64,000 nt of DNA from an uncultured SAR86 cluster bacterium (GTDB taxonomy: Bacteria > Pseudomonadota > Gammaproteobacteria > Magnimaribacterales > D2472). The translations under genes were made by a program, and so were the position numbers. Where the stretch lies: contig CACOWI010000004.1 of NCBI GenBank assembly GCA_902630885.1, positions 8,762 to 72,761 on the forward strand, in the 5' to 3' direction. Below the pieces are notes generated by a model. The model was not told the origin of the DNA and did not search any database. It saw nothing but the letters and a program-made list of their open reading frames with translations. Position 1 is the first letter of the stretch. Every line of letters begins with the position of its first letter. Shown here piece by piece: positions 7,395 to 37,967 of this stretch.

Positions 7395-9593
7395 ATGCAG
7401 CTAAAACATATAAAACTTGCAGGTTTTAAAAGTTTCGTTGATCCAACGAAGATATCTTTCCCAACAAATATGGTGGGCGTTGTAGGCCCGAATGGCTGTG
7501 GAAAATCAAATGTAATAGACGCTGTTCGATGGGTGCTTGGTGAATTATCAGCAAAAAATCTAAGAGGTGAATCAATGGTAGATGTTATCTTCAATGGTTC
7601 TGAAAATAGGAAAGCATCTGGGCAATGCAGTATAGAGCTTTTGTTTGATAATTCTAGCGCCAAAATCGGAGGAGAATATGCATCCTTCAATGAGGTATCA
7701 ATCAAAAGGGTAATGACAAGAGATGCTCAATCCGATTACTTTATAAATAACACGAAATGTAGACGAAAAGATGTACAAGATATATTTCTTGGCACAGGTT
7801 TAGGACCAAGTTCCTATGCAATCATTGAACAGGGAATGGTAAGCAAACTTGTTAGTGCAAAACCAGATGAATTAAGGACTCATATTGAAGAGGCAGCTGG
7901 AGTATCAAAGTATAGAGAAAGAAGAAAAGAAACAGAATCAAGAATAAAGAGAACAAGAGAAAATTTATCAAGAGTAAAAGATATTCGAGATGAAATTGGA
8001 AGACTTATAAAAAGATTGGAGAATCAAGCTAAAGCTGCTGAAAAATATAATGTTCTTAAGAAAGATAAAGCAAAAATGGAATTAGATAAAGCTATTCTAT
8101 TTTCAATCGAAGCAAAAAGTAATAGGGATGATTTACAAAAAAAGCTAGACTCACTTAACAGAGACCTTCAAATAAAAAATGCTGAGTCTGAAACTGTTCA
8201 ATCACAAATAGATCAATTCAGGACAGAAAACGAATCTGTTTTAAGTGAATATGAGAGTGCTCAAAAGAACTTTTATGCAGTTGGTGCTGAAATAGCAAAA
8301 AGAGAAGCAAATCTTCAAAATATTAATAAAAATGATCAGGAAACAAAATCAAATTTAGAAAAAGTAAAACAAAATCTTGAAAAAGCTAAGGAAACAGAAA
8401 AAAACTTTGATGAATTGAGCCCAAGCGAAAAGGCTATGCATATTCTTAATAGCATGATTAATACGATAGAGAAATATGGAATTACTAACGACAATATAAA
8501 AGAGAAAGCTATTGAATTAAAAGGATTACTTACTGATATTTTAAATATAGCTTCGGCTCAATCAAAAACACTAACTGAGGAATATTTATCGAGACAAAAT
8601 GATCTTGAAGATCAAATTGCTAATGCTGAAAAATTGAAAAAATCTATCGAAAACGAAATGAAAGACTTTGTAGATAAAAGCTCAAGTGCAGAATCTGTTT
8701 TGGTTTCATTGAGACAGAAGCAATCAAAATTTAATGAGGAACTAAGAGAACTTGAAAATAAAAAATCGATAGCAGATTTAGATTCTAGATCAATTTCTGA
8801 AAAAATCATGAACATTAGTATTGAACAAAAAACTTATGAAGTTAATCTTGATAACTCAAACAAAAAAATTAAAGAAGCTGGTATAGATATAGAAAAAATT
8901 GATTTTTCTGAATATCAGAATATAACCCTAGAAGAGCTTGAAGAAAATTTAGTTAATATTGAAACAAAGATAATAAAATTAGGCGCTATAAACTTAGCGG
9001 CACCAGAGGAAATAAAAGAGGAATCAAAACGAAAAGAAGAGCTTGATGAACAATATGATGACTTGACTGAAGCTCTTGATAAGCTTACAGGTGCAATTAA
9101 AAAAATCGATCAAGAGACTAAAACCATTTTTAAAGAAAGTTTCGATTCAGTTAACTTAAAACTAAAAGAAATGTTTCCAAAATTATTTGGTGGAGGGTTA
9201 GCTGAATTAACTTTAACCGAGGAGGATGCTTTAAATGCTGGTGTAATTTTGATGGCAAGACCTCCTGGTAAAAAAAATTCATCTATATCTCAACTTTCAG
9301 GCGGTGAAAAAGCTTTGACTGCACTGGCATTAGTATTTGCAATTTTTGATCTTAATCCGGCTCCTTTTTGTTTGCTTGACGAGGTTGACGCCCCTCTAGA
9401 TGATTTAAATACAGTGAGATTTATAAATATGGTCGAGGAGATGTCAAAAACTGTTCAGTTTATATTTATTACCCATAATAAAGTTTCTATGGAAAGAAGT
9501 GATTACCTTATGGGTGTAACCATGCAAGAGGCTGGTGTCTCCAGAATGGTATCAGTTGACGTGAATCAGGCCCTTGAATTGGCTGAGACATAA
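7395..9593 (+). CDS. smc: chromosome partition protein SMC, unusually short (732 aa), no recognisable hinge
   Basis: Canonical SMC N-terminal head 'LAGFKSFVDPT..VGPNGCGKSNVIDAVRWVLGE.SAK.LRG'. C-terminal head has signature 'QLSGGEKALTALALVFAIF' and Walker B 'LLDEVDAPLDD'. Heptad-rich K/E/Q-rich region lies between. Followed by zipA as in other gammaproteobacteria. Confidence 0.8.
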   Translation: MQLKHIKLAGFKSFVDPTKISFPTNMVGVVGPNGCGKSNVIDAVRWVLGELSAKNLRGESMVDVIFNGSENRKASGQCSIELLFDNSSAKIGGEYASFNEVSIKRVMTRDAQSDYFINNTKCRRKDVQDIFLGTGLGPSSYAIIEQGMVSKLVSAKPDELRTHIEEAAGVSKYRERRKETESRIKRTRENLSRVKDIRDEIGRLIKRLENQAKAAEKYNVLKKDKAKMELDKAILFSIEAKSNRDDLQKKLDSLNRDLQIKNAESETVQSQIDQFRTENESVLSEYESAQKNFYAVGAEIAKREANLQNINKNDQETKSNLEKVKQNLEKAKETEKNFDELSPSEKAMHILNSMINTIEKYGITNDNIKEKAIELKGLLTDILNIASAQSKTLTEEYLSRQNDLEDQIANAEKLKKSIENEMKDFVDKSSSAESVLVSLRQKQSKFNEELRELENKKSIADLDSRSISEKIMNISIEQKTYEVNLDNSNKKIKEAGIDIEKIDFSEYQNITLEELEENLVNIETKIIKLGAINLAAPEEIKEESKRKEELDEQYDDLTEALDKLTGAIKKIDQETKTIFKESFDSVNLKLKEMFPKLFGGGLAELTLTEEDALNAGVILMARPPGKKNSSISQLSGGEKALTALALVFAIFDLNPAPFCLLDEVDAPLDDLNTVRFINMVEEMSKTVQFIFITHNKVSMERSDYLMGVTMQEAGVSRMVSVDVNQALELAET

Positions 9594-10220
9594 ATGAGTA
9601 TTAATACAGAAATATACTTAATAGGCTTGTCTGTTTTAATATTTCTGATAATTACTTTTTTGTTCATAAAAAAAATATCGAATGATGGGAATTTAAAAGT
9701 AAAGATTGAAAAAATAGCAGATTCATCAAACCTAAAAAAGTCAGTTGATCATCCTGGAAATCAACAGTCATTTGATTTTCAAACAGATCATACTAAAGAA
9801 CAAGAATTGGTGATATTAAATTTAATTTCTATGGATAAATCTATGTTTGATATAGATCAATTATTTGGATTTTTATCAAATTATGGTGCGAAAATCGTCA
9901 ATAATTACTTTGCTTTTTACCAAGATAATAGAATAGAAAAATTTAGAGTAATTAATGCTTTAAAACCCGGAATCTTTGAAGATGAAACTAAAACATTTGC
10001 AATAGCAGTTGCCTCTGATCTAAATGTTGTAGATGATCCTTTAAATACTGTTAAGCAAATGATTGAATTTTCAATTAACTTTTCAGAAAAATTTTACGCA
10101 ACACTTTGTGATCAAGATAGGACACCTATAACAAAACAGATGATCGCACATATTGAATCTAGAGCCCAAGAAATTGCAAGAATGAAACAGCTTAATAATA
10201 CGTCTATTGAGGAACAATAA
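9594..10220 (+). CDS. zipA: cell division protein ZipA, short form (208 aa)
   Basis: N-terminal TM anchor. The C-terminal domain is alignable by eye to the E. coli ZipA FtsZ-binding domain ('VINALKPGIFED' vs 'LANMVKPGTFD'; 'LCDQDRTPITKQMI' vs 'LDDQRRMMTPQKL'). The ATG abuts the smc stop. Confidence 0.75.
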   Translation: MSINTEIYLIGLSVLIFLIITFLFIKKISNDGNLKVKIEKIADSSNLKKSVDHPGNQQSFDFQTDHTKEQELVILNLISMDKSMFDIDQLFGFLSNYGAKIVNNYFAFYQDNRIEKFRVINALKPGIFEDETKTFAIAVASDLNVVDDPLNTVKQMIEFSINFSEKFYATLCDQDRTPITKQMIAHIESRAQEIARMKQLNNTSIEEQ

Positions 10221-10224
10221 ATCG

Positions 10225-11511
10225 ATGATCGAGCCTTGGAAAATTATCCTTGAACTTGAAAGTGATAACAGTCGACTATTTAAAGAGGGCATTGTTGAAA
10301 AATATCTTAAGGACAAAGTATTTCAAGAAGGTCTTGTTATGTGTCTAGATCCTTTGACTACTTTTGGAGTTAAACAAGTGCCTGAATGTAATGAAGATGG
10401 TGATGGTCTTAGCTGGAATGATTTTAAAAAAGCTGCAGATCAATTAATAGATAGAGAAAAGACCGGCCATGCAGCTAGAGATTTAATTCTTGATCTTATA
10501 AATTCTTCAAAAATAGATCAGTGGAATAATTGGTATCGTAGAATTCTGATTAAGGATCTAAGATGTGGAGTAAGTGAAAAGACAGTAAACAATGTTGCAA
10601 AAAAAATGAATCTAGAATTTAGAGTGCCTATTTTTTCTTGTATGCTTGCTCATGACGGAGCCAAACACCCAAAAAAAATTAAAGGTGATTGCTTGGTTGA
10701 ATATAAATATGACGGAGTAAGGGTAGTAGCAATTGTTAAGAATGGAAAGGCAACTCTATACAGCCGTAATGGAAAGATATTTACTAATTTTCCTCACATT
10801 GAAAGCGCCTTAAGTAAAAAGGAATACAACAATTTTGTTTTTGATGGAGAGGTAATGAGTGATGATTTTCAAGCTCTAATGAAACAAGTATATAGAAAAT
10901 CAGGAGCAAAAACTGACGATGCTTATCTCGCTTTATTTGATATCCTGCCTCTTAAAGAATTTAATGACGGTAAAAGTAAATTAAACTCTATTGAAAGAAA
11001 AGAAAAACTTAACGAATTAGCACAAACTTTTGGAGATGCAATTAAGTTAGTAGATTATGAAATTATTAACTTTGATACTGAAGAGGGGCAGACTAAATTT
11101 TCTGAGATGAATAAGGAAGCCCTAGAAAAAGGTTTTGAGGGCTTAATGATCAAACCAAATGATAATTTTTATGAATGTAAAAGAAGTCATGCTTGGTTGA
11201 AAATAAAACCATTTATAGAAGTTACACTAAAGATTATTGACATACAAGAAGGATCTGGAAAGCATGAAGGCAAGTTAGGTGCCTTTCATGTAGAGGGTGA
11301 AGATGACGGAAAGTTTTTTTCACTCAGCGTTGGAAGTGGTCTCACTGATGATGATAGAGAAAGATTCTGGGCAGCAAAAGATAAGCTTGTTGGGAGAATG
11401 GTTGAAATAAGGGCAGACGCAATAACTCAAAGCATTGAGGGTGAGCACTTTAGCTTAAGATTCCCAAGATTTAAAAATTTTAGAGGATTTAAAGAGGATG
11501 AAAAGATTTAA
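10225..11511 (+). CDS. ATP-dependent DNA ligase (three-domain: DBD-like, adenylation, OB)
   Basis: Motif I 'EYKYDGVR' (KxDG lysine), motif III 'FVFDGEVM', IV 'YLALFDIL', V 'EGLMIKP', VI 'LRFPRFKNFR'. I chose the ATG at 10225 (GAGGAA 10 nt upstream) over the TTG at 10207 in the ORF track. Confidence 0.85.
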   Translation: MIEPWKIILELESDNSRLFKEGIVEKYLKDKVFQEGLVMCLDPLTTFGVKQVPECNEDGDGLSWNDFKKAADQLIDREKTGHAARDLILDLINSSKIDQWNNWYRRILIKDLRCGVSEKTVNNVAKKMNLEFRVPIFSCMLAHDGAKHPKKIKGDCLVEYKYDGVRVVAIVKNGKATLYSRNGKIFTNFPHIESALSKKEYNNFVFDGEVMSDDFQALMKQVYRKSGAKTDDAYLALFDILPLKEFNDGKSKLNSIERKEKLNELAQTFGDAIKLVDYEIINFDTEEGQTKFSEMNKEALEKGFEGLMIKPNDNFYECKRSHAWLKIKPFIEVTLKIIDIQEGSGKHEGKLGAFHVEGEDDGKFFSLSVGSGLTDDDRERFWAAKDKLVGRMVEIRADAITQSIEGEHFSLRFPRFKNFRGFKEDEKI

Positions 11512-12103
11512 ATTTATATATTTCTTGCTAACAATATTGATTATTCAATCTTGTACTACAAGACCTCCTGAAAATCCTGATAATATATGTTTGATTTTCA
11601 AAGAAAAAAGAAGTTGGTATAAAGCAGTTATAAGAAGTGAGAAAAGGTGGAAAATACCACCCTATGTATTAATGTCATTTGTTCATCAAGAGTCAAGCTT
11701 CCAATCAGATGCTAGACCTGAAAGAGAGAAGATACTTGGCTTTATACCATGGTTTAGACCATCTTCAGCTGTTGGATATTCACAAGCACTAACTAAAACT
11801 TGGGAAGATTATAAGGACGAAACTGGAAATTATAGGGCAAGCAGAAAAGACTTTGAAGATTCAGCTGATTTCATTGGTTGGTATGCCAGTAAAGGCTACT
11901 ATCAGGGCTTTGAAAGAGCTGATGCAAGATCATTATATTTAGCATACCACGAGGGTTATCGCGGGTTTGAAAAAAAGACTTACAGAAAAAAACAATGGTT
12001 GATAAAAGTAGCAGATAGAGTGCAAGCAAGATCTACCAAGTACCAAAAACAATATTGGAGTTGTGAAAAGGATTTAAAGAAAAAGAAATTTCTATTTTTT
12101 TGA
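11498..12103 (+). CDS. lipoprotein with lytic transglycosylase (SLT-like) motifs
   Basis: Lipobox 'LIIQSC'. Catalytic-type 'VHQESSFQ', 'VGYSQ' and 'LAYHEGY' resemble the ES / GLMQ / AYNAG motifs of family-1 lytic transglycosylases. Confidence 0.6.
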   Translation: MKRFKFIYFLLTILIIQSCTTRPPENPDNICLIFKEKRSWYKAVIRSEKRWKIPPYVLMSFVHQESSFQSDARPEREKILGFIPWFRPSSAVGYSQALTKTWEDYKDETGNYRASRKDFEDSADFIGWYASKGYYQGFERADARSLYLAYHEGYRGFEKKTYRKKQWLIKVADRVQARSTKYQKQYWSCEKDLKKKKFLFF

Positions 12104-14962
12104 TCAGATATTTTTTATCCTTAACCTCATTTTTTCCATTTCTTTAATATGGTTTTTTCCAGCAACAACAGATTTTTTTGATTCATTAAATAAATATTTT
12201 TGCGAAACATTAATTAAATCGTCAAGTTTACAACTTTTTACCGATGACCTTATTTCTAATCTTTTTTCTATAGTTTTTTTATCAAGATTCATTGAAAAAT
12301 CACTCATCGCTTCTCCAAATGGAGAAAGGGGTTTATCAATACTTGATACTACTCCTAAAATACCCTCATCAAGTTGTTCTTGAGTAATATTTTTCAGTGA
12401 CCATTCTCTTGATTTTTGGAATTCATTAAAAGTCTCAAGGCATCTTGGATCACGATATGAAAAGAATTTAAAAACCTTATTATTTGAATCTTGCATTGCA
12501 CCAGCACCATATGCTCCTCCTTTTTCTCTTATAGCCGAATGTAAATATCCATTCCTCAAAACAGCGCCTAAAACACTCAGAGCCGGCGCATCTTTATGGA
12601 AAAAATCAACTGTAGGAAAGGCTTCAGCGCAATACGTCACTTGTGCTCCTGTAATCCACCCAATTGAGTCTTGTTGAATATTAAAATAATCTTGGTAGCT
12701 AAGTGCATTATTTTCATTAGCAACTTCAAAATTTATATCAGACTGATCAATATTACGAGAAGAAGCCGTGAAAGAATACACAGGTATCGGAGAAATTTTA
12801 TTTTTTATACTATTAAGTATTTCAATATATTTATCGAGATCAGTTTTTTTATCAATATTTTTAGATAGTTTATTTGTGTTGGTTATAAAGTTAATGCCTG
12901 ACAAACAATCATTTGTAGCAGATATATTATTTATTTGAGCAGCACAATTACTCATCGATAGAATATGTCCATTTTGTATCAATGATTTTTCATTGTCTGA
13001 GGAAATGAAATTTAACATGTCTTTAATTCTATTTTTATCAGAGAAGTTTGCATCTTTAGCAGTCTCAATCATTAAATCTTGCATTTCTCTCTCATTTTCT
13101 TCCAACGACTTTGAAGTAATTTTGAGTCCAATAGTATGAGAAGATTGATTTTCATTTGGAATTAGAGTGAAGGCTGCTGATATTCCCCCGGTAATTGCGG
13201 ATTGTATTTTTTGAACATCTTCATAATTTTTATCACCAATTCCAATATCAGTAAGCGTATTAGTAAACAATGTAGCTATTTTAAATTCCTGTTCTGTTAA
13301 TGAACTACAAGGGAGGATTATTGAATGATAGGTGATCCCATTAGTCCCAATGTTATAAAAAAAGTCTTTATCATTTAATGATTTTGATTTTACATATGAG
13401 CGTTTTTTTGGAATATCTTCCTTAGTTACTTTAGGTAAAATTTCAGGATTATCAGACTTTTCTTGTCTAAGTTTTAAATTTTTAGTTAGTTCAATAATTC
13501 TATCTTTATCCTCGTTAGATAGATTTTTTGATTTAATATCGATTTTTTCTTGAATTTTTCTTTCATTTTTAGAATTAAATTCAATATCCGGAGCAAGACA
13601 ATAATTTACCCTATGAGAATTATTAATAATTTTGTTTTCAATTAGTGACTCAATATATTTATCTTTTTTGAGATTTTTTTTAATTACATCAAATGATGCA
13701 TCTAAGTCGAGAACCTTAAGAGGATCATCGTTATGCAGACAGGCTGGAAGACAACTAAGCATTATTTGAAGTCCATAGGGCATACCAGATCCTGTAATTT
13801 CCCTTTGTTTTATTTCAAGTTGATGCAAAGACGATTGTATAAGCTCATTAGAAACTCCTTTTGTGACCACATCTTTAAGACAGTTCAATATCAAATCTTC
13901 AACTTCAATTTGTTTATTTGAGTCAACGCCTTCGAGTCCTGCAGCAAAAACAAGCTCTTTATGATCTGCCTCAAGTCCTGTTAGAGGAGAAAGTGATTTT
14001 CCAAGATCGGTATTTTCTAAAGTTTTTCTTAAAGGCGATGCAGAATTATCCAAAAGAATATTTGACACTAAATATGATTCTAATAATTCAACTGGGTTAT
14101 GACTTTCACCTAAAAGCCAACTTAAAACAATGTGATGGTTGTTTTCGTCTTCTGGCATTGGGTTATAAAATTCAGTGACAGTCTTGGGTTGTTTTATTCT
14201 ATCTTCATTTTTCACACTTATGATTTCAGTGGATGGCTCAAATTTTTCTAATACATTTTTGTTAATGAAATCTTGAATTTCATTTGGATTTAAATTACCA
14301 AATGTAAAGAAGGTAGCATTTGATGGATGATAATGCCTTTTGTGAAAGTCTACTAGATATTCATGTGTGAGATCTATTATATTTTCTGGATTACCACCAC
14401 TATTATGCTTATAAGTTGATGTGTCATACAAATGCCTAGATAAACCGTGCCATAGCTGACTGGATATAGAGCTCATGGCGCCCTTCATCTCATTAAATAC
14501 AACTCCTTTAATTTCTAGATCACTATCAGAATTATTTTTTTCAGAAAATTCAAGCCTATGTCCCTCTTGAAGAAAATCTAGCTCATCTAAGTTAGGAAAA
14601 AAAGAAGAGTCAAGATATACACTTAATAGGTTATTAAAATCTTTGTCATTCTGTGTTGCAAATGGATATGCAGTCCAGTCGCTTGAAGTGAAAGCATTCA
14701 TGAAAGTATTTAATGATCTTCTTATCATCATAAAAAAAGGATCTCTTACTGGATATTTTTTTGAACCACAGAGTGCGGTATGCTCAAGAATATGAGCAAC
14801 ACCTGTTGAGTCTTCTGGGATAGTTCTAAATGCAACCATAAATACCTTTTCATCACTTTTAGAATCAAGATGAATATGCTTGCAATTGAATTCAGATTCA
14901 GTATATATTTGAGCATTAAGGTCTAATAATTTTATATATTTTTGATCTTCTAAATTAAACAT
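12104..14962 (-). CDS. M16C family zinc metallopeptidase (presequence-protease/PreP-like), 952 aa
   Basis: Inverted zincin motif 'HILEHTALCGS'. The ~950-aa four-domain size is typical of the PreP/Cym1 type. Confidence 0.8.
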   Translation of the reverse strand: MFNLEDQKYIKLLDLNAQIYTESEFNCKHIHLDSKSDEKVFMVAFRTIPEDSTGVAHILEHTALCGSKKYPVRDPFFMMIRRSLNTFMNAFTSSDWTAYPFATQNDKDFNNLLSVYLDSSFFPNLDELDFLQEGHRLEFSEKNNSDSDLEIKGVVFNEMKGAMSSISSQLWHGLSRHLYDTSTYKHNSGGNPENIIDLTHEYLVDFHKRHYHPSNATFFTFGNLNPNEIQDFINKNVLEKFEPSTEIISVKNEDRIKQPKTVTEFYNPMPEDENNHHIVLSWLLGESHNPVELLESYLVSNILLDNSASPLRKTLENTDLGKSLSPLTGLEADHKELVFAAGLEGVDSNKQIEVEDLILNCLKDVVTKGVSNELIQSSLHQLEIKQREITGSGMPYGLQIMLSCLPACLHNDDPLKVLDLDASFDVIKKNLKKDKYIESLIENKIINNSHRVNYCLAPDIEFNSKNERKIQEKIDIKSKNLSNEDKDRIIELTKNLKLRQEKSDNPEILPKVTKEDIPKKRSYVKSKSLNDKDFFYNIGTNGITYHSIILPCSSLTEQEFKIATLFTNTLTDIGIGDKNYEDVQKIQSAITGGISAAFTLIPNENQSSHTIGLKITSKSLEENEREMQDLMIETAKDANFSDKNRIKDMLNFISSDNEKSLIQNGHILSMSNCAAQINNISATNDCLSGINFITNTNKLSKNIDKKTDLDKYIEILNSIKNKISPIPVYSFTASSRNIDQSDINFEVANENNALSYQDYFNIQQDSIGWITGAQVTYCAEAFPTVDFFHKDAPALSVLGAVLRNGYLHSAIREKGGAYGAGAMQDSNNKVFKFFSYRDPRCLETFNEFQKSREWSLKNITQEQLDEGILGVVSSIDKPLSPFGEAMSDFSMNLDKKTIEKRLEIRSSVKSCKLDDLINVSQKYLFNESKKSVVAGKNHIKEMEKMRLRIKNI

Positions 14963-35937: not shown

Positions 35938-37917
35938 TTATGAGTTGTTGAAACTATCGATCAAAATTTGCTCAGTTAAAATCGCAGGTAATATCTTAGA
36001 CTCTTTCATTCCTGGTTTCCAAAAAATATATAAAGGCACTCCATTTCTATTATATGACTCAAGAGTTTTGAGAATTTCGTCATTTTTATTAGTCCAGTCA
36101 GCAACAATATATTCAATATTATTTTTATTTATATATTCTTTTACATTTGGCCTTGATAGAGCAATTTTGTCGTTAGTCTGACATGTGATACACCATGCAG
36201 CAGTAAAGTTAATCAAATATGCTTGATTTTTATTTTGATACTCATTTTCTATATTTTTGTTCCATTCGACATAATTAAAACTTTCAAGGTTTAGAGCGCT
36301 TGGGCTCTCAATTTCATTTGATGTAATATTTTTAAATTGGTAGAAAATTACAAAAATCGCAAAAGATAAAAGAGTCAGTTTGTAGAATGGCTTATTAATT
36401 TTCAAACCAATCCATAATAATAATGAGATTATCAAAATTGTTATCAATAAAAATATTACTTCATTAGATGATGTCTGAAAGCTAAATACCCATATTAACC
36501 ATATTGATGTTGCAAACATAGGAAATGCAAAAAATTCTTTTAAAGTAATCATCCAGTTGCCTGGCTTTGGAAGATAATTTATTAAACTTGGTGAGGTTGA
36601 CAAAACAAAATAAGGAAATGCAAACCCTAAACCAAGTGCAGAAAAGACTGGCAGTGTTACTCCTGAAGGTTGTATTAATGCATAACCAAGTGCAGCTCCC
36701 ATAAATGGTGCTGTGCAAGGTGAAGCAACAATTACAGCTAAAACTCCTGTGGAAAAGGACCCAACCAAATTATTACTAGAACCAACACCACCAAGTCTAG
36801 TAAGTGATGAGCCTATATTTATATCACTTAAAAGAATTAAACCAATGATAAACATTAATAAACTAAGTAACCCAACTATAATGGGTGACTGCAATTGAAA
36901 TCCCCAACCTAAATATAAACCAGCTTGCTTAAGAAGAATCATGGCGATTCCAATTAATATAAACGAGATCATTACTCCTGAACAAAATGATAGAGCGTGA
37001 GCCCTAATTTTTGATGGAGATTGATTACTCATTGAAACAAAACTAAGTACTTTTAGAGAAATTATTGGAAAAACACAAGGCATCAAATTTAAGATTAAGC
37101 CACCTACAAAAGCAAATAACAACGCTTGTATTAACGAGAGATCCAGTGAGTTTTGTGTAATACCATCAAGCTCAGAATTTATAATGAAACTTTCATTATT
37201 ATTTATCGATATTACTCCTGTTAAAGAATCGAAGGGTACTGAATCCTTAATTTTTTTAACTTTCAGTAAGTAATTATTTTCTTCTACTGAAAGAATCTGT
37301 TCTGAAGCATGCTCGACAATATTTTGATCATCGACAAAAAATATTGCTGAGGTCACGTTGAATGGTGATGAAAATCGAATATTTATAAAATCTTTATCTA
37401 ATGATGCTTTTACTGGAAGTGTTTGATATGGGACCTTCATAAACCAATCATTTAAAGAAGAATCTGATTCGATTTCTTGAAGTGTTGTTTTAATAAATGC
37501 TTTTTCTGGTACGCATATATCGTCACAAATTAAAAAATCTATATTCGCCTCAATGTATGAGTTTTTATTATTAGAATTTGTAATCTCAAACGGAAAAATT
37601 ACAAAATTCTTATAGCCATAAGTCATCAAAGGCTCATATGGAATTAAGCTTGGGGTTGGCCAATATAAGTCACTTATTGAAATATTATCTTCGTGTGACC
37701 AATTAACTTTTAAAGGACCGCCTGAATCGCCAGGATTTTTCCAGTAGGTGTGCCAATTCTCTTGCATATCCATTCGAATACCAAGAAGCATTTTGCTCTG
37801 GTTGTCTTGAACATAATTAAACTTTATTAAAGATACATTTGCATGACCAGTATCTACAGTGACAGCATTAATAGTTATACAAAAAATTAATAAAAAGGAT
37901 ATTTTAAGAAATTTCAT
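35938..37917 (-). CDS. dsbD: thiol:disulfide interchange protein, DsbD/ScsB family
   Basis: N-terminal periplasmic domain with 'FLICDDICVPE', a membrane core with 'LMPCVFP' and 'ASPCTAPF', and a C-terminal thioredoxin 'AAWCITCQ'. I chose the start at 37917 (MKFLKISFLLIF..., a good signal peptide) because the track extension runs through a GC-rich hairpin. Confidence 0.8.
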   Translation of the reverse strand: MKFLKISFLLIFCITINAVTVDTGHANVSLIKFNYVQDNQSKMLLGIRMDMQENWHTYWKNPGDSGGPLKVNWSHEDNISISDLYWPTPSLIPYEPLMTYGYKNFVIFPFEITNSNNKNSYIEANIDFLICDDICVPEKAFIKTTLQEIESDSSLNDWFMKVPYQTLPVKASLDKDFINIRFSSPFNVTSAIFFVDDQNIVEHASEQILSVEENNYLLKVKKIKDSVPFDSLTGVISINNNESFIINSELDGITQNSLDLSLIQALLFAFVGGLILNLMPCVFPIISLKVLSFVSMSNQSPSKIRAHALSFCSGVMISFILIGIAMILLKQAGLYLGWGFQLQSPIIVGLLSLLMFIIGLILLSDINIGSSLTRLGGVGSSNNLVGSFSTGVLAVIVASPCTAPFMGAALGYALIQPSGVTLPVFSALGLGFAFPYFVLSTSPSLINYLPKPGNWMITLKEFFAFPMFATSIWLIWVFSFQTSSNEVIFLLITILIISLLLWIGLKINKPFYKLTLLSFAIFVIFYQFKNITSNEIESPSALNLESFNYVEWNKNIENEYQNKNQAYLINFTAAWCITCQTNDKIALSRPNVKEYINKNNIEYIVADWTNKNDEILKTLESYNRNGVPLYIFWKPGMKESKILPAILTEQILIDSFNNS

Positions 37918-37944
37918 AAATTGCAATTTTAGGCTATTAAACAT

Positions 37945-37967
37945 ATGGGGTGCATTATGCACCCCAT
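37945..37967 (-). terminator. GC-rich hairpin downstream of ibpA (candidate intrinsic terminator)
   Basis: The transcript reads AUGGGGUGCAU-A-AUGCACCCCAU (11-nt perfect arms) followed by AUGUUUAAU. It is the only such GC-rich inverted repeat I saw in an intergenic position. Confidence 0.5.

Follow-up and report, generated by a model that had tools for sequence, protein, structure and literature searches.

It is textbook doctrine that all bacteria replicate their DNA with the NAD+-dependent ligase LigA, which is hence pursued as an antibacterial target; to our knowledge, the only reported exception to an NAD+-dependent replicative ligase is high-light Prochlorococcus. Here we describe a second case, found in a 64,000-nucleotide stretch of contig CACOWI010000004.1 (assembly GCA_902630885.1), to which in its whole length we refer as the window. 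A protein of 428 amino acids (aa), encoded at positions 10225..11511 (+), is predicted from its domains and motifs to be an ATP-dependent DNA ligase, and its gene directly follows the cell division gene zipA. The window, whose G+C content is ~31%, comes from SAR86, an abundant marine gammaproteobacterium, and there from the D2472/'Suzuki' family.

The closest described system is that of Prochlorococcus. As reported in a 2020 preprint by Hjerde et al., an ATP-dependent ligase, AD-Lig P or Pmar-Lig, replaced ligA in situ in high-light Prochlorococcus, which these authors present as the first bacterium to depend on an ATP ligase for replication; the enzyme was assayed as ATP-dependent, with a specific activity >10x that of the full-length NAD-dependent ligase of the low-light strain MIT9211 (bioRxiv 10.1101/2020.05.11.089284). 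Structures of Pmar-Lig are available (6RAU, 6RAS, 6RAR, 6RCE; Williamson & Leiros 2019), and its DNA-binding domain is a seven-helix bundle common to T4 ligase (PMC7470946).

A first-pass annotation of the window, made from the sequence alone, had suggested that the SAR86 gene is an in situ non-orthologous displacement of ligA rather than an accessory repair ligase. We find that ligA has indeed been displaced at this slot, and we consider it highly probable that the ATP-dependent enzyme now serves the SAR86 lineage of the window as its chief DNA ligase, and probably as its sole one. Literature searches combining SAR86 and ligase returned no prior description of a ligA replacement in SAR86; the SAR86 displacement appears to be unreported, while the Prochlorococcus precedent has already been described for the same ligase family.

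Results

In E. coli K-12 zipA is followed by ligA. In the window the ATG of the ATP ligase at 10225 lies 4 nt past the stop of zipA (9594..10220, +; 208 aa; Pfam ZipA_C 43 bits, cut-off 23), which encodes the FtsZ anchor, and the start of the SLT_4 lytic transglycosylase gene slt4 (11498..12103, +; Pfam SLT_4 241.7 bits) overlaps the 3' end of the ligase by 14 nt. An alternative TTG start at 10207 appears in the list of open reading frames (ORFs); we place the start at the ATG because the homologues are all 428 aa. When a single genome of each GTDB species was scanned, the ligase was recovered from 47 SAR86 species genomes at 69-91% identity, among them SAR86A (locus L009), SCGC AAA076-P13 (L032), the closed 1.298-Mb chromosome OX044367.1 and the 1.19-Mb contig QCMW01000001.1 of a single amplified genome (SAG). 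The gene order ccmF-G-H-I / smc / zipA / ligase / slt4 / PreP is found in 47/47 of these loci, with smc 62-99% identical at the same position. After SAR86, the next matches in the scan were Prochlorococcus (51-54%), one SAR406 metagenome-assembled genome (MAG) and two probably mis-binned contigs; thousands of marine variants of the ligase are present in the protein database. The ligase is a resident gene in much of the D2472/'Suzuki' family of SAR86.

Metagenome contigs were picked by the SLT_4 motif WYASKGYYQGF, which is invariant in 49 SAR86 loci; the 120 contigs obtained are an arbitrary sample among the matches listed, not the best matches. The slot upstream of slt4 contains an ATP ligase in 80 of them and an NAD-dependent LigA in 32, while 8 are too short to tell. 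(A pattern joining the SAR86 ZipA C-terminal motif and the LigA N-terminal DxPxxxDxEYD at a guessed spacing gave no metagenome match.) In the 32 LigA contigs, as far as each one extends, the gene is preceded by smc and zipA of the SAR86 type and followed by slt4 and PreP; complete LigA ORFs of 709-725 aa are present in 22 of the 32, the rest being cut at contig ends or apparently truncated, and SAR86 LigA and E. coli LigA share 40-56% identity where they align. As an example, the LigA of locus L179 scores 758 bits on TIGR00575 (cut-off 444) and contains PF22745, PF01653, PF03120, PF12826 and PF00533 (Ia, adenylation, OB, HhH, BRCT). Its gene starts 6 nt past zipA and overlaps slt4 by 23 nt: these junctions are like those of the window ligase (4 nt and 14 nt), so that the exchange was gene for gene, with no leftover DNA.

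Overall, the smc-zipA-[X]-slt4-PreP frame was recognized in at least 161 informative loci, 129 with the ATP ligase and 32 with LigA; among the matches listed, none of the 161 informative SAR86 loci carries both in the slot. In all informative loci among these matches slt4 is directly downstream of the ATP ligase or LigA, and the position of PreP is kept in both types. The slot occupied by the window ligase is the ligA slot. The comparison of the gene downstream of zipA in relatives, which the first-pass annotation had proposed, thus bears out both its premise, that this place normally belongs to ligA, and its proposal of an in situ non-orthologous displacement. In four ATP-ligase loci (L048 10001-11283, from SAG AG-422-O05; L213; L252; L272) the gene aligns only in part or has a length that cannot be divided by three (1283 nt in L048); the irregular ligases are either sequencing/assembly frameshifts or occasional pseudogenes.

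The protein itself is put by Pfam and NCBIfam alike among the ATP-dependent ligases, and it matches two Pfam families. DNA_ligase_A_M (PF01068; 87.2 bits, cut-off 26.2) covers residues 149-328, the predicted nucleotidyltransferase (adenylation) domain (10669..11208, +), with motifs I (EYKYDGVR, residues 159-166), III (FVFDGEVM, 204-211), IV (YLALFDIL, 234-241) and V (EGLMIKP, 305-311); DNA_ligase_OB_2 (PF14743; 44.7 bits, cut-off 28) covers residues 342-420, a predicted OB-fold domain (11248..11484, +) with motif VI (LRFPRFKNFR, 411-420). No Pfam model covers the N-terminal stretch of ~residues 1-148 (10225..10668, +), which shows no large gaps when aligned to the DNA-binding domain in 6RAU and is the putative helical DNA-binding domain. 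In a family alignment of 196 sequences, K161 (the catalytic lysine, codon 10705-10707), D163, G164, R166, the D and E of motif III, the F of motif IV and the E, G and K of motif V are 100% conserved, the G of motif III 98% and the D of motif IV 99%. The N-terminus MIEPWKIILELESDN, judged by eye, is not hydrophobic, unlike a signal peptide.

The best PDB matches are the Prochlorococcus marinus ligase structures 6RAU/6RAS/6RAR/6RCE (phmmer E 2.4e-133, query 6-428 versus 6RAU chain residues 10-442), with 52% identity to Pmar-Lig over the full length; the T4 DNA ligase structure 6DT1 is also matched, and among PHROG families the protein falls in phrog_114, the phage ATP-dependent DNA ligases (E 2.4e-93). 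The assignment to the phage / T4 / Pmar-Lig (AD-Lig P) type is a sequence-level comparison; an AlphaFold2 model built on a shallow alignment of homologues ≥85% identical had a predicted local distance difference test score (pLDDT) of 39 and a predicted template-modelling score (pTM) of 0.30, and was discarded. From the 52% identity to the assayed Prochlorococcus enzyme, the cofactor is predicted to be ATP.

Other ligase identities were considered and rejected. The Pfam scan gave no match to any of the NAD-ligase families (Ia, PF01653 adenylation, zinc finger, HhH, BRCT), which disposes of LigA. NCBIfam models for LigB, LigC, LigD or non-homologous end joining (NHEJ), and Lig E are all far below cut-off: for example, 96 versus 228 for the NHEJ ligase model TIGR02779, 81 versus 373 for the LigD model TIGR02776, and 76 versus 200 for the Lig E model PRK09125. 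Lig E, a minimal periplasmic ligase, is moreover ~280 aa with an N-terminal signal peptide and no DNA-binding domain, versus 428 aa with an N-terminal domain of ~150 aa here. As for LigD and NHEJ ligases, no Ku, polymerase or phosphoesterase partner is nearby, and no ku or LigD-type domains occur among the neighbouring gene families of the window and of SAG locus L001. The first-pass annotation had already read the ORF in these terms (start 4 nt past zipA, full set of motifs I and III-VI, compact DBD-like N-terminal domain of about 150 aa, no NAD-ligase-specific modules, no ku or LigD-type domains nearby), and the profile alignments, with PF01068 and PF14743 above cut-off, leave that description standing.

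The history of the slot inside SAR86 was studied with a tree of concatenated smc, slt4 and PreP proteins (the flank tree). Several LigA lineages are at its base; above them is a clade with 95% support, composed mostly of ATP-ligase loci, that splits into two halves, each with 100% support. One LigA lineage is nested in each half, of the L225 type in one and of the L179/L279 type in the other, so that either differential loss after a period with two genes, or a later re-exchange, is needed. The ligase tree shows the same two major clades as the flank tree, and at all depths the divergence of the ligase goes in step with that of smc. Compared with any other LigA lineage sampled, the nested LigA sequences have 59-68% identity, a divergence as large as that among those lineages themselves, and for this reason no recent LigA donor is apparent. 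In the simplest reading there was one acquisition, followed by coexistence of both ligases during a rapid radiation and by lineage-specific loss of either; a reversion is a possible alternative.

Alternatively, the two ligase types might be interchangeable alleles of the slot, which SAR86 lineages still trade by homologous recombination in the conserved flanks, with no single ancient replacement. The nesting of LigA lineages in ATP-ligase clades, as 100-bootstrap groups of the flank tree, speaks for this account, and so does a recombination breakpoint a short way downstream of slt4, seen when the window is compared with a SAG that has a 98% identical ligase. We regard it as unlikely, although well worth retaining, because the ligase and smc diverge in proportion at every depth, the two major clades of the flank tree reappear in the ligase tree, the nested LigA sequences have no visible recent donor, and a single acquisition with a two-gene period and lineage-specific loss explains these facts at least as well. 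Allele swapping concerns the evolutionary history only, and is compatible with the function that we propose for the ligase. The breakpoint itself was recognized in the comparison of the window with L001, where synonymous divergence (dS) is 0.08-0.5 from ccmF through slt4 and 0.8-1.8 for PreP, DUF4136 and alkyl sulfatase; this suggests homologous recombination just past slt4, at ~12100 (the slt4/PreP border).

We then asked whether ligA is present elsewhere. No match to LigA was found in the 64-kb window with E. coli LigA or three SAR86 LigA queries, and the same three SAR86 queries found no ligA remnants there, and neither LigA nor remnants of it in the 129 ATP-ligase loci. An ORF of LigA size (674 aa, 35938-37962, -) was rejected as ligA: it encodes a DsbD-type thiol:disulfide interchange protein (DsbD_N, DsbD_TM, thioredoxin-like). 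For whole genomes we relied on Ramfelt et al. 2024, who tabulate CheckM markers for each SAR86 genome (PMC11582366 Tables S1/S2), taking the TIGR00575 scores from the portion of the table that covers 47 genomes, with completeness by the family marker set. In that portion the LigA marker scores 0 in SAR86A (GCA_000252525.1, Su-G10, 97% complete), in GCA_000384935.1 (93%) and GCA_000385055.1 (99%), both Su-G9, and in five partial low-GC SAR86 genomes, and it scores 1 in sister genera, with the closed isolate HIMB1674, Su-G2, Su-G3 and CHAB-I-7 (PMC11582366). If completeness is assumed to be independent between genomes, the probability that all three near-complete genomes miss ligA by incompleteness alone is ~1e-5. 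SAR86A and AAA076-P13, both scored in the marker table, also carry the ATP ligase.

These scores have a practical side. As far as the portion of Table S1 used here extends, TIGR00575, a marker of the CheckM Gammaproteobacteria set, is systematically missing from some members of the SAR86 Suzuki family (PMC11582366), because, in our interpretation, the gene was replaced; the paper makes no comment on ligases. Used as a marker, TIGR00575 underestimates the completeness of ATP-ligase SAR86 genomes, and it should not be counted there among the universal single-copy markers.

An accessory repair ligase that only happens to lie beside zipA, with an intact NAD-dependent ligA elsewhere in charge of replication, would be in keeping with the many bacteria that have accessory ATP-dependent ligases in addition to LigA (PMC7470946), and with the fact that the LigA search in the window's own organism covered the 64-kb window. 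We judge this to be very improbable: the ATP ligase and LigA are mutually exclusive in one slot across the 161 loci among the matches listed; LigA-bearing relatives keep LigA in exactly this slot, and no other location of ligA is known; in the portion of the published table used, TIGR00575 is absent from three 93-99% complete genomes of the ATP-ligase clade, yet the model scores 758 bits on a SAR86 LigA; and there are no Ku, LigD polymerase or nuclease partners nearby.

The origin of the ligase appears to be viral. Homologues on viral contigs of IMG/VR are up to 63-64% identical to the window protein, closer than Prochlorococcus, and their neighbourhoods are one-directional arrays with phage-family genes. 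Among cultured phages the best match has 34% identity (Herelleviridae-type ligases, 30-34%); we did not retain the cultured-phage database as a gauge of phage affinity, as its best value of 34% would understate it versus the 64% in IMG/VR. The first-pass annotation had suggested a phylogeny with phage and cyanobacterial ligases. In a neighbour-joining tree of 196 sequences, with 100 bootstraps on a 71-sequence subset, the SAR86 ligases are monophyletic (bootstrap 100) and their sister group is wholly viral (bootstrap 100), while the Prochlorococcus ligases, also monophyletic (bootstrap 100), are nested in another viral clade; a grouping of SAR86 with Prochlorococcus has bootstrap 0. Since the two never group and nest in different viral clades, related phage ligases were recruited independently.

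Three of the more distant carriers deserve mention. Locus L053 (9989-11317), on a 335-kb contig of the Neomarinimicrobiota/SAR406 MAG RS350, has a ligase of the Prochlorococcus/viral clade with 51% identity to the window protein, which has small ORFs (metallophosphoesterase, HhH-GPD) around it and lies outside any zipA-type slot. The ligase of L050, from the 'Pacearchaeota' bin ARS103, is 56% identical to that of the window, groups with viral sequences, is likewise outside a zipA-type slot, and has as neighbours ClpP, radical-SAM and numerous small ORFs on one strand; L050 has the look of a phage contig that was mis-binned, not of an archaeal one. L045, a 2.4-kb contig in an Aliarcobacter bin with a SAR86-like ligase (70% identity), also looks like a mis-binned contig and not an epsilonproteobacterial one.

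Within SAR86 the gene behaves as a housekeeping gene of its host. In eight pairwise comparisons the ratio of nonsynonymous to synonymous divergence (dN/dS) of the ligase is 0.035-0.064, equal to that of smc and below those of zipA and most ccm genes: the ligase is under strong purifying selection (dN/dS ~0.04). Its G+C content at third codon positions (GC3) is 0.23, in the range of its neighbours (0.18-0.26). Metatranscriptome contigs from four marine runs, 90-99% identical to the window, cover smc, zipA, the ligase and slt4, and several of them cross gene borders (for example 9475-10367, 9974-10420 and 11054-11529), the first of these taking in the end of smc, the whole of zipA and the start of the ligase, which fits a polycistronic transcript. 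Membership in a phage ligase family (phrog_114) and nearest relatives on viral contigs would also suit a passenger gene of a phage or mobile-element insertion, recent, dispensable and being lost, but this is hardly credible for a gene with no flanking phage or mobile genes, whose borders are a 4-nt gap and a 14-nt overlap, which has the same position in 47 species genomes and at least 80 metagenome contigs, whose tree fits the flank tree at the deepest split, whose dN/dS is like that of smc and GC3 host-like, and whose copies are uniform and intact.

The remaining features of the region are as follows. The genes smc, zipA, ligase and slt4 form a head-to-tail, tightly packed array on the same strand, with the ccm cytochrome-c maturation genes alongside and the PreP-type M16 peptidase gene on the opposite strand (12104..14962, -; Peptidase_M16, M16C_assoc and PreP_C in the L001 orthologue), which marks the end of the conserved frame; overall the neighbours of the ligase are ccmA-I, smc, zipA, SLT_4, the PreP peptidase, DUF4136 and an alkyl sulfatase. 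The first gene of the array is smc (7395..9593, +; TIGR02168 813 bits, Pfam SMC_N), whose TAA stop (9591-9593) is followed at once by the zipA ATG at 9594, as the first-pass annotation had it. At 732 aa the SMC protein of the window is unusually short: Pfam, NCBIfam and PDB matches cover only the two halves of the head (residues 2-222 and 474-731), and none of these searches matched a hinge domain. Some SAR86 relatives have an SMC of 995 aa (for example L031 6366-9353), likewise with no Pfam hinge match, and from these profiles SAR86 SMC may be hinge-less or strongly reduced. The 732-aa form was rejected as a shared derived marker of the ATP-ligase clade, as short and long forms are mixed in the LigA and ATP-ligase lineages of the flank tree.

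Discussion

The results can be brought together in the following scenario. An ancestor within the D2472/'Suzuki' SAR86 would have gained a phage-type ATP-dependent ligase, which would have replaced ligA between zipA and slt4 in a one-for-one exchange of genes. Vertical descent would then have kept it as a housekeeping gene that shares a transcript with smc and zipA. Judging from the solved Prochlorococcus homologue, Lys161 of motif I would be adenylated by ATP, the AMP would be transferred to the 5' phosphate at the nick, and attack by the 3' hydroxyl would seal it, with the helical DNA-binding, nucleotidyltransferase and OB domains encircling the duplex. Without LigA, both the joining of Okazaki fragments and the sealing of repair nicks would fall to the ATP ligase; an essential replicative role is predicted for it.

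Several points weigh against this scenario. The LigA lineages of the L179 and L225 types nested in ATP-ligase clades with bootstrap 100 mean that there was not one clean replacement. The genome-wide absence of ligA rests on the published CheckM table, in the portion covering 47 genomes, and the mapping of accessions to loci is firm for SAR86A and AAA076-P13, while we infer it for the other genomes. In the strain of the window, a ligA, a LigB-type NAD ligase or another ATP ligase may be present outside the 64 kb. Metatranscriptome libraries can hold contaminating DNA. Finally, ATP use, essentiality and the replicative role of the SAR86 enzyme are properties that we infer, and the Pfam scan found no BRCT family match in the ligase, which bears on its recruitment to the replisome.

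With these reservations, SAR86 would be a second, independent exception, after high-light Prochlorococcus, to the NAD-dependent replication ligase of bacteria. If so, the exception is no cyanobacterial oddity, but has arisen independently, from another phage lineage and in an unrelated phylum, and would look like a repeatable evolutionary outcome. SAR86 would then represent a natural experiment on why bacteria normally retain an NAD+-dependent ligase: matched SAR86 genomes with either ligase in the same slot offer a test of the cofactor advantage in terms of gene size (the ATP ligase saves 290 codons relative to LigA), NAD+ economy, enzyme activity, and light or ultraviolet exposure. It is quite possible, although we would stop short of calling it probable, that phage ATP ligases have replaced the replicative bacterial NAD+ ligase convergently, and in connection with the environment, in the low-GC, streamlined bacteria that dominate the plankton of the sunlit ocean (high-light Prochlorococcus, SAR86 and, as a possible third case, the SAR406 MAG of L053), and that in SAR86 the slot has undergone at least three switches or sortings between the two ligase types among close lineages.

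Comparison with Known Ligases

The accessory ATP ligases of bacteria (LigB, LigC, LigD/NHEJ, Lig E) share with the SAR86 ligase the adenylation family PF01068, and Lig E also the OB_2 type of OB domain (PMC7470946); the SAR86 ligase's N-terminal DNA-binding domain, however, is absent in Lig E. With LigA (TIGR00575; E. coli 2OWO) the SAR86 ligase has in common the slot downstream of zipA and presumably the same cellular job, the sealing of nicks in replication and repair. Beyond the nucleotidyltransferase and OB core the two architectures are unrelated, as the window protein is without Ia, zinc finger, HhH and BRCT; it is also much shorter (428 aa versus 709-725 aa for the complete SAR86 LigA ORFs), and its predicted cofactor is ATP, not NAD+. 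The phage ligases (phrog_114, T4 6DT1, the IMG/VR contigs) are homologous to it over the full length, with at most 64% identity, whereas the SAR86 gene is chromosomal, lies between housekeeping genes, has a host-like composition, and is vertically inherited across at least 47 species.

The closest likeness is to AD-Lig P / Pmar-Lig, which belongs to the same family and has the same architecture (compact helical DNA-binding, nucleotidyltransferase and OB_2 domains). Both ligases occupy the position that full-length LigA has in relatives, and both are found in low-GC, streamlined bacteria of the sunlit surface ocean. The features from which Hjerde et al. recognized displacement recur in SAR86, as far as the published marker scores used here allow it to be judged: the LigA slot is taken, and the near-complete genomes of the clade have no full-length LigA. 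The two systems differ in phylum (Gammaproteobacteria versus Cyanobacteria) and in flanking genes (smc-zipA/slt4 in SAR86, the vicinity of recA in Prochlorococcus); they were acquired independently, from separate clades of marine viruses that never grouped in 100 bootstraps. Near the SAR86 locus no truncated NAD-ligase fragments or extra ATP ligases are seen, and closely related SAR86 lineages show a mixture of the LigA and ATP-ligase states, as opposed to the clean split between ecotypes of Prochlorococcus.

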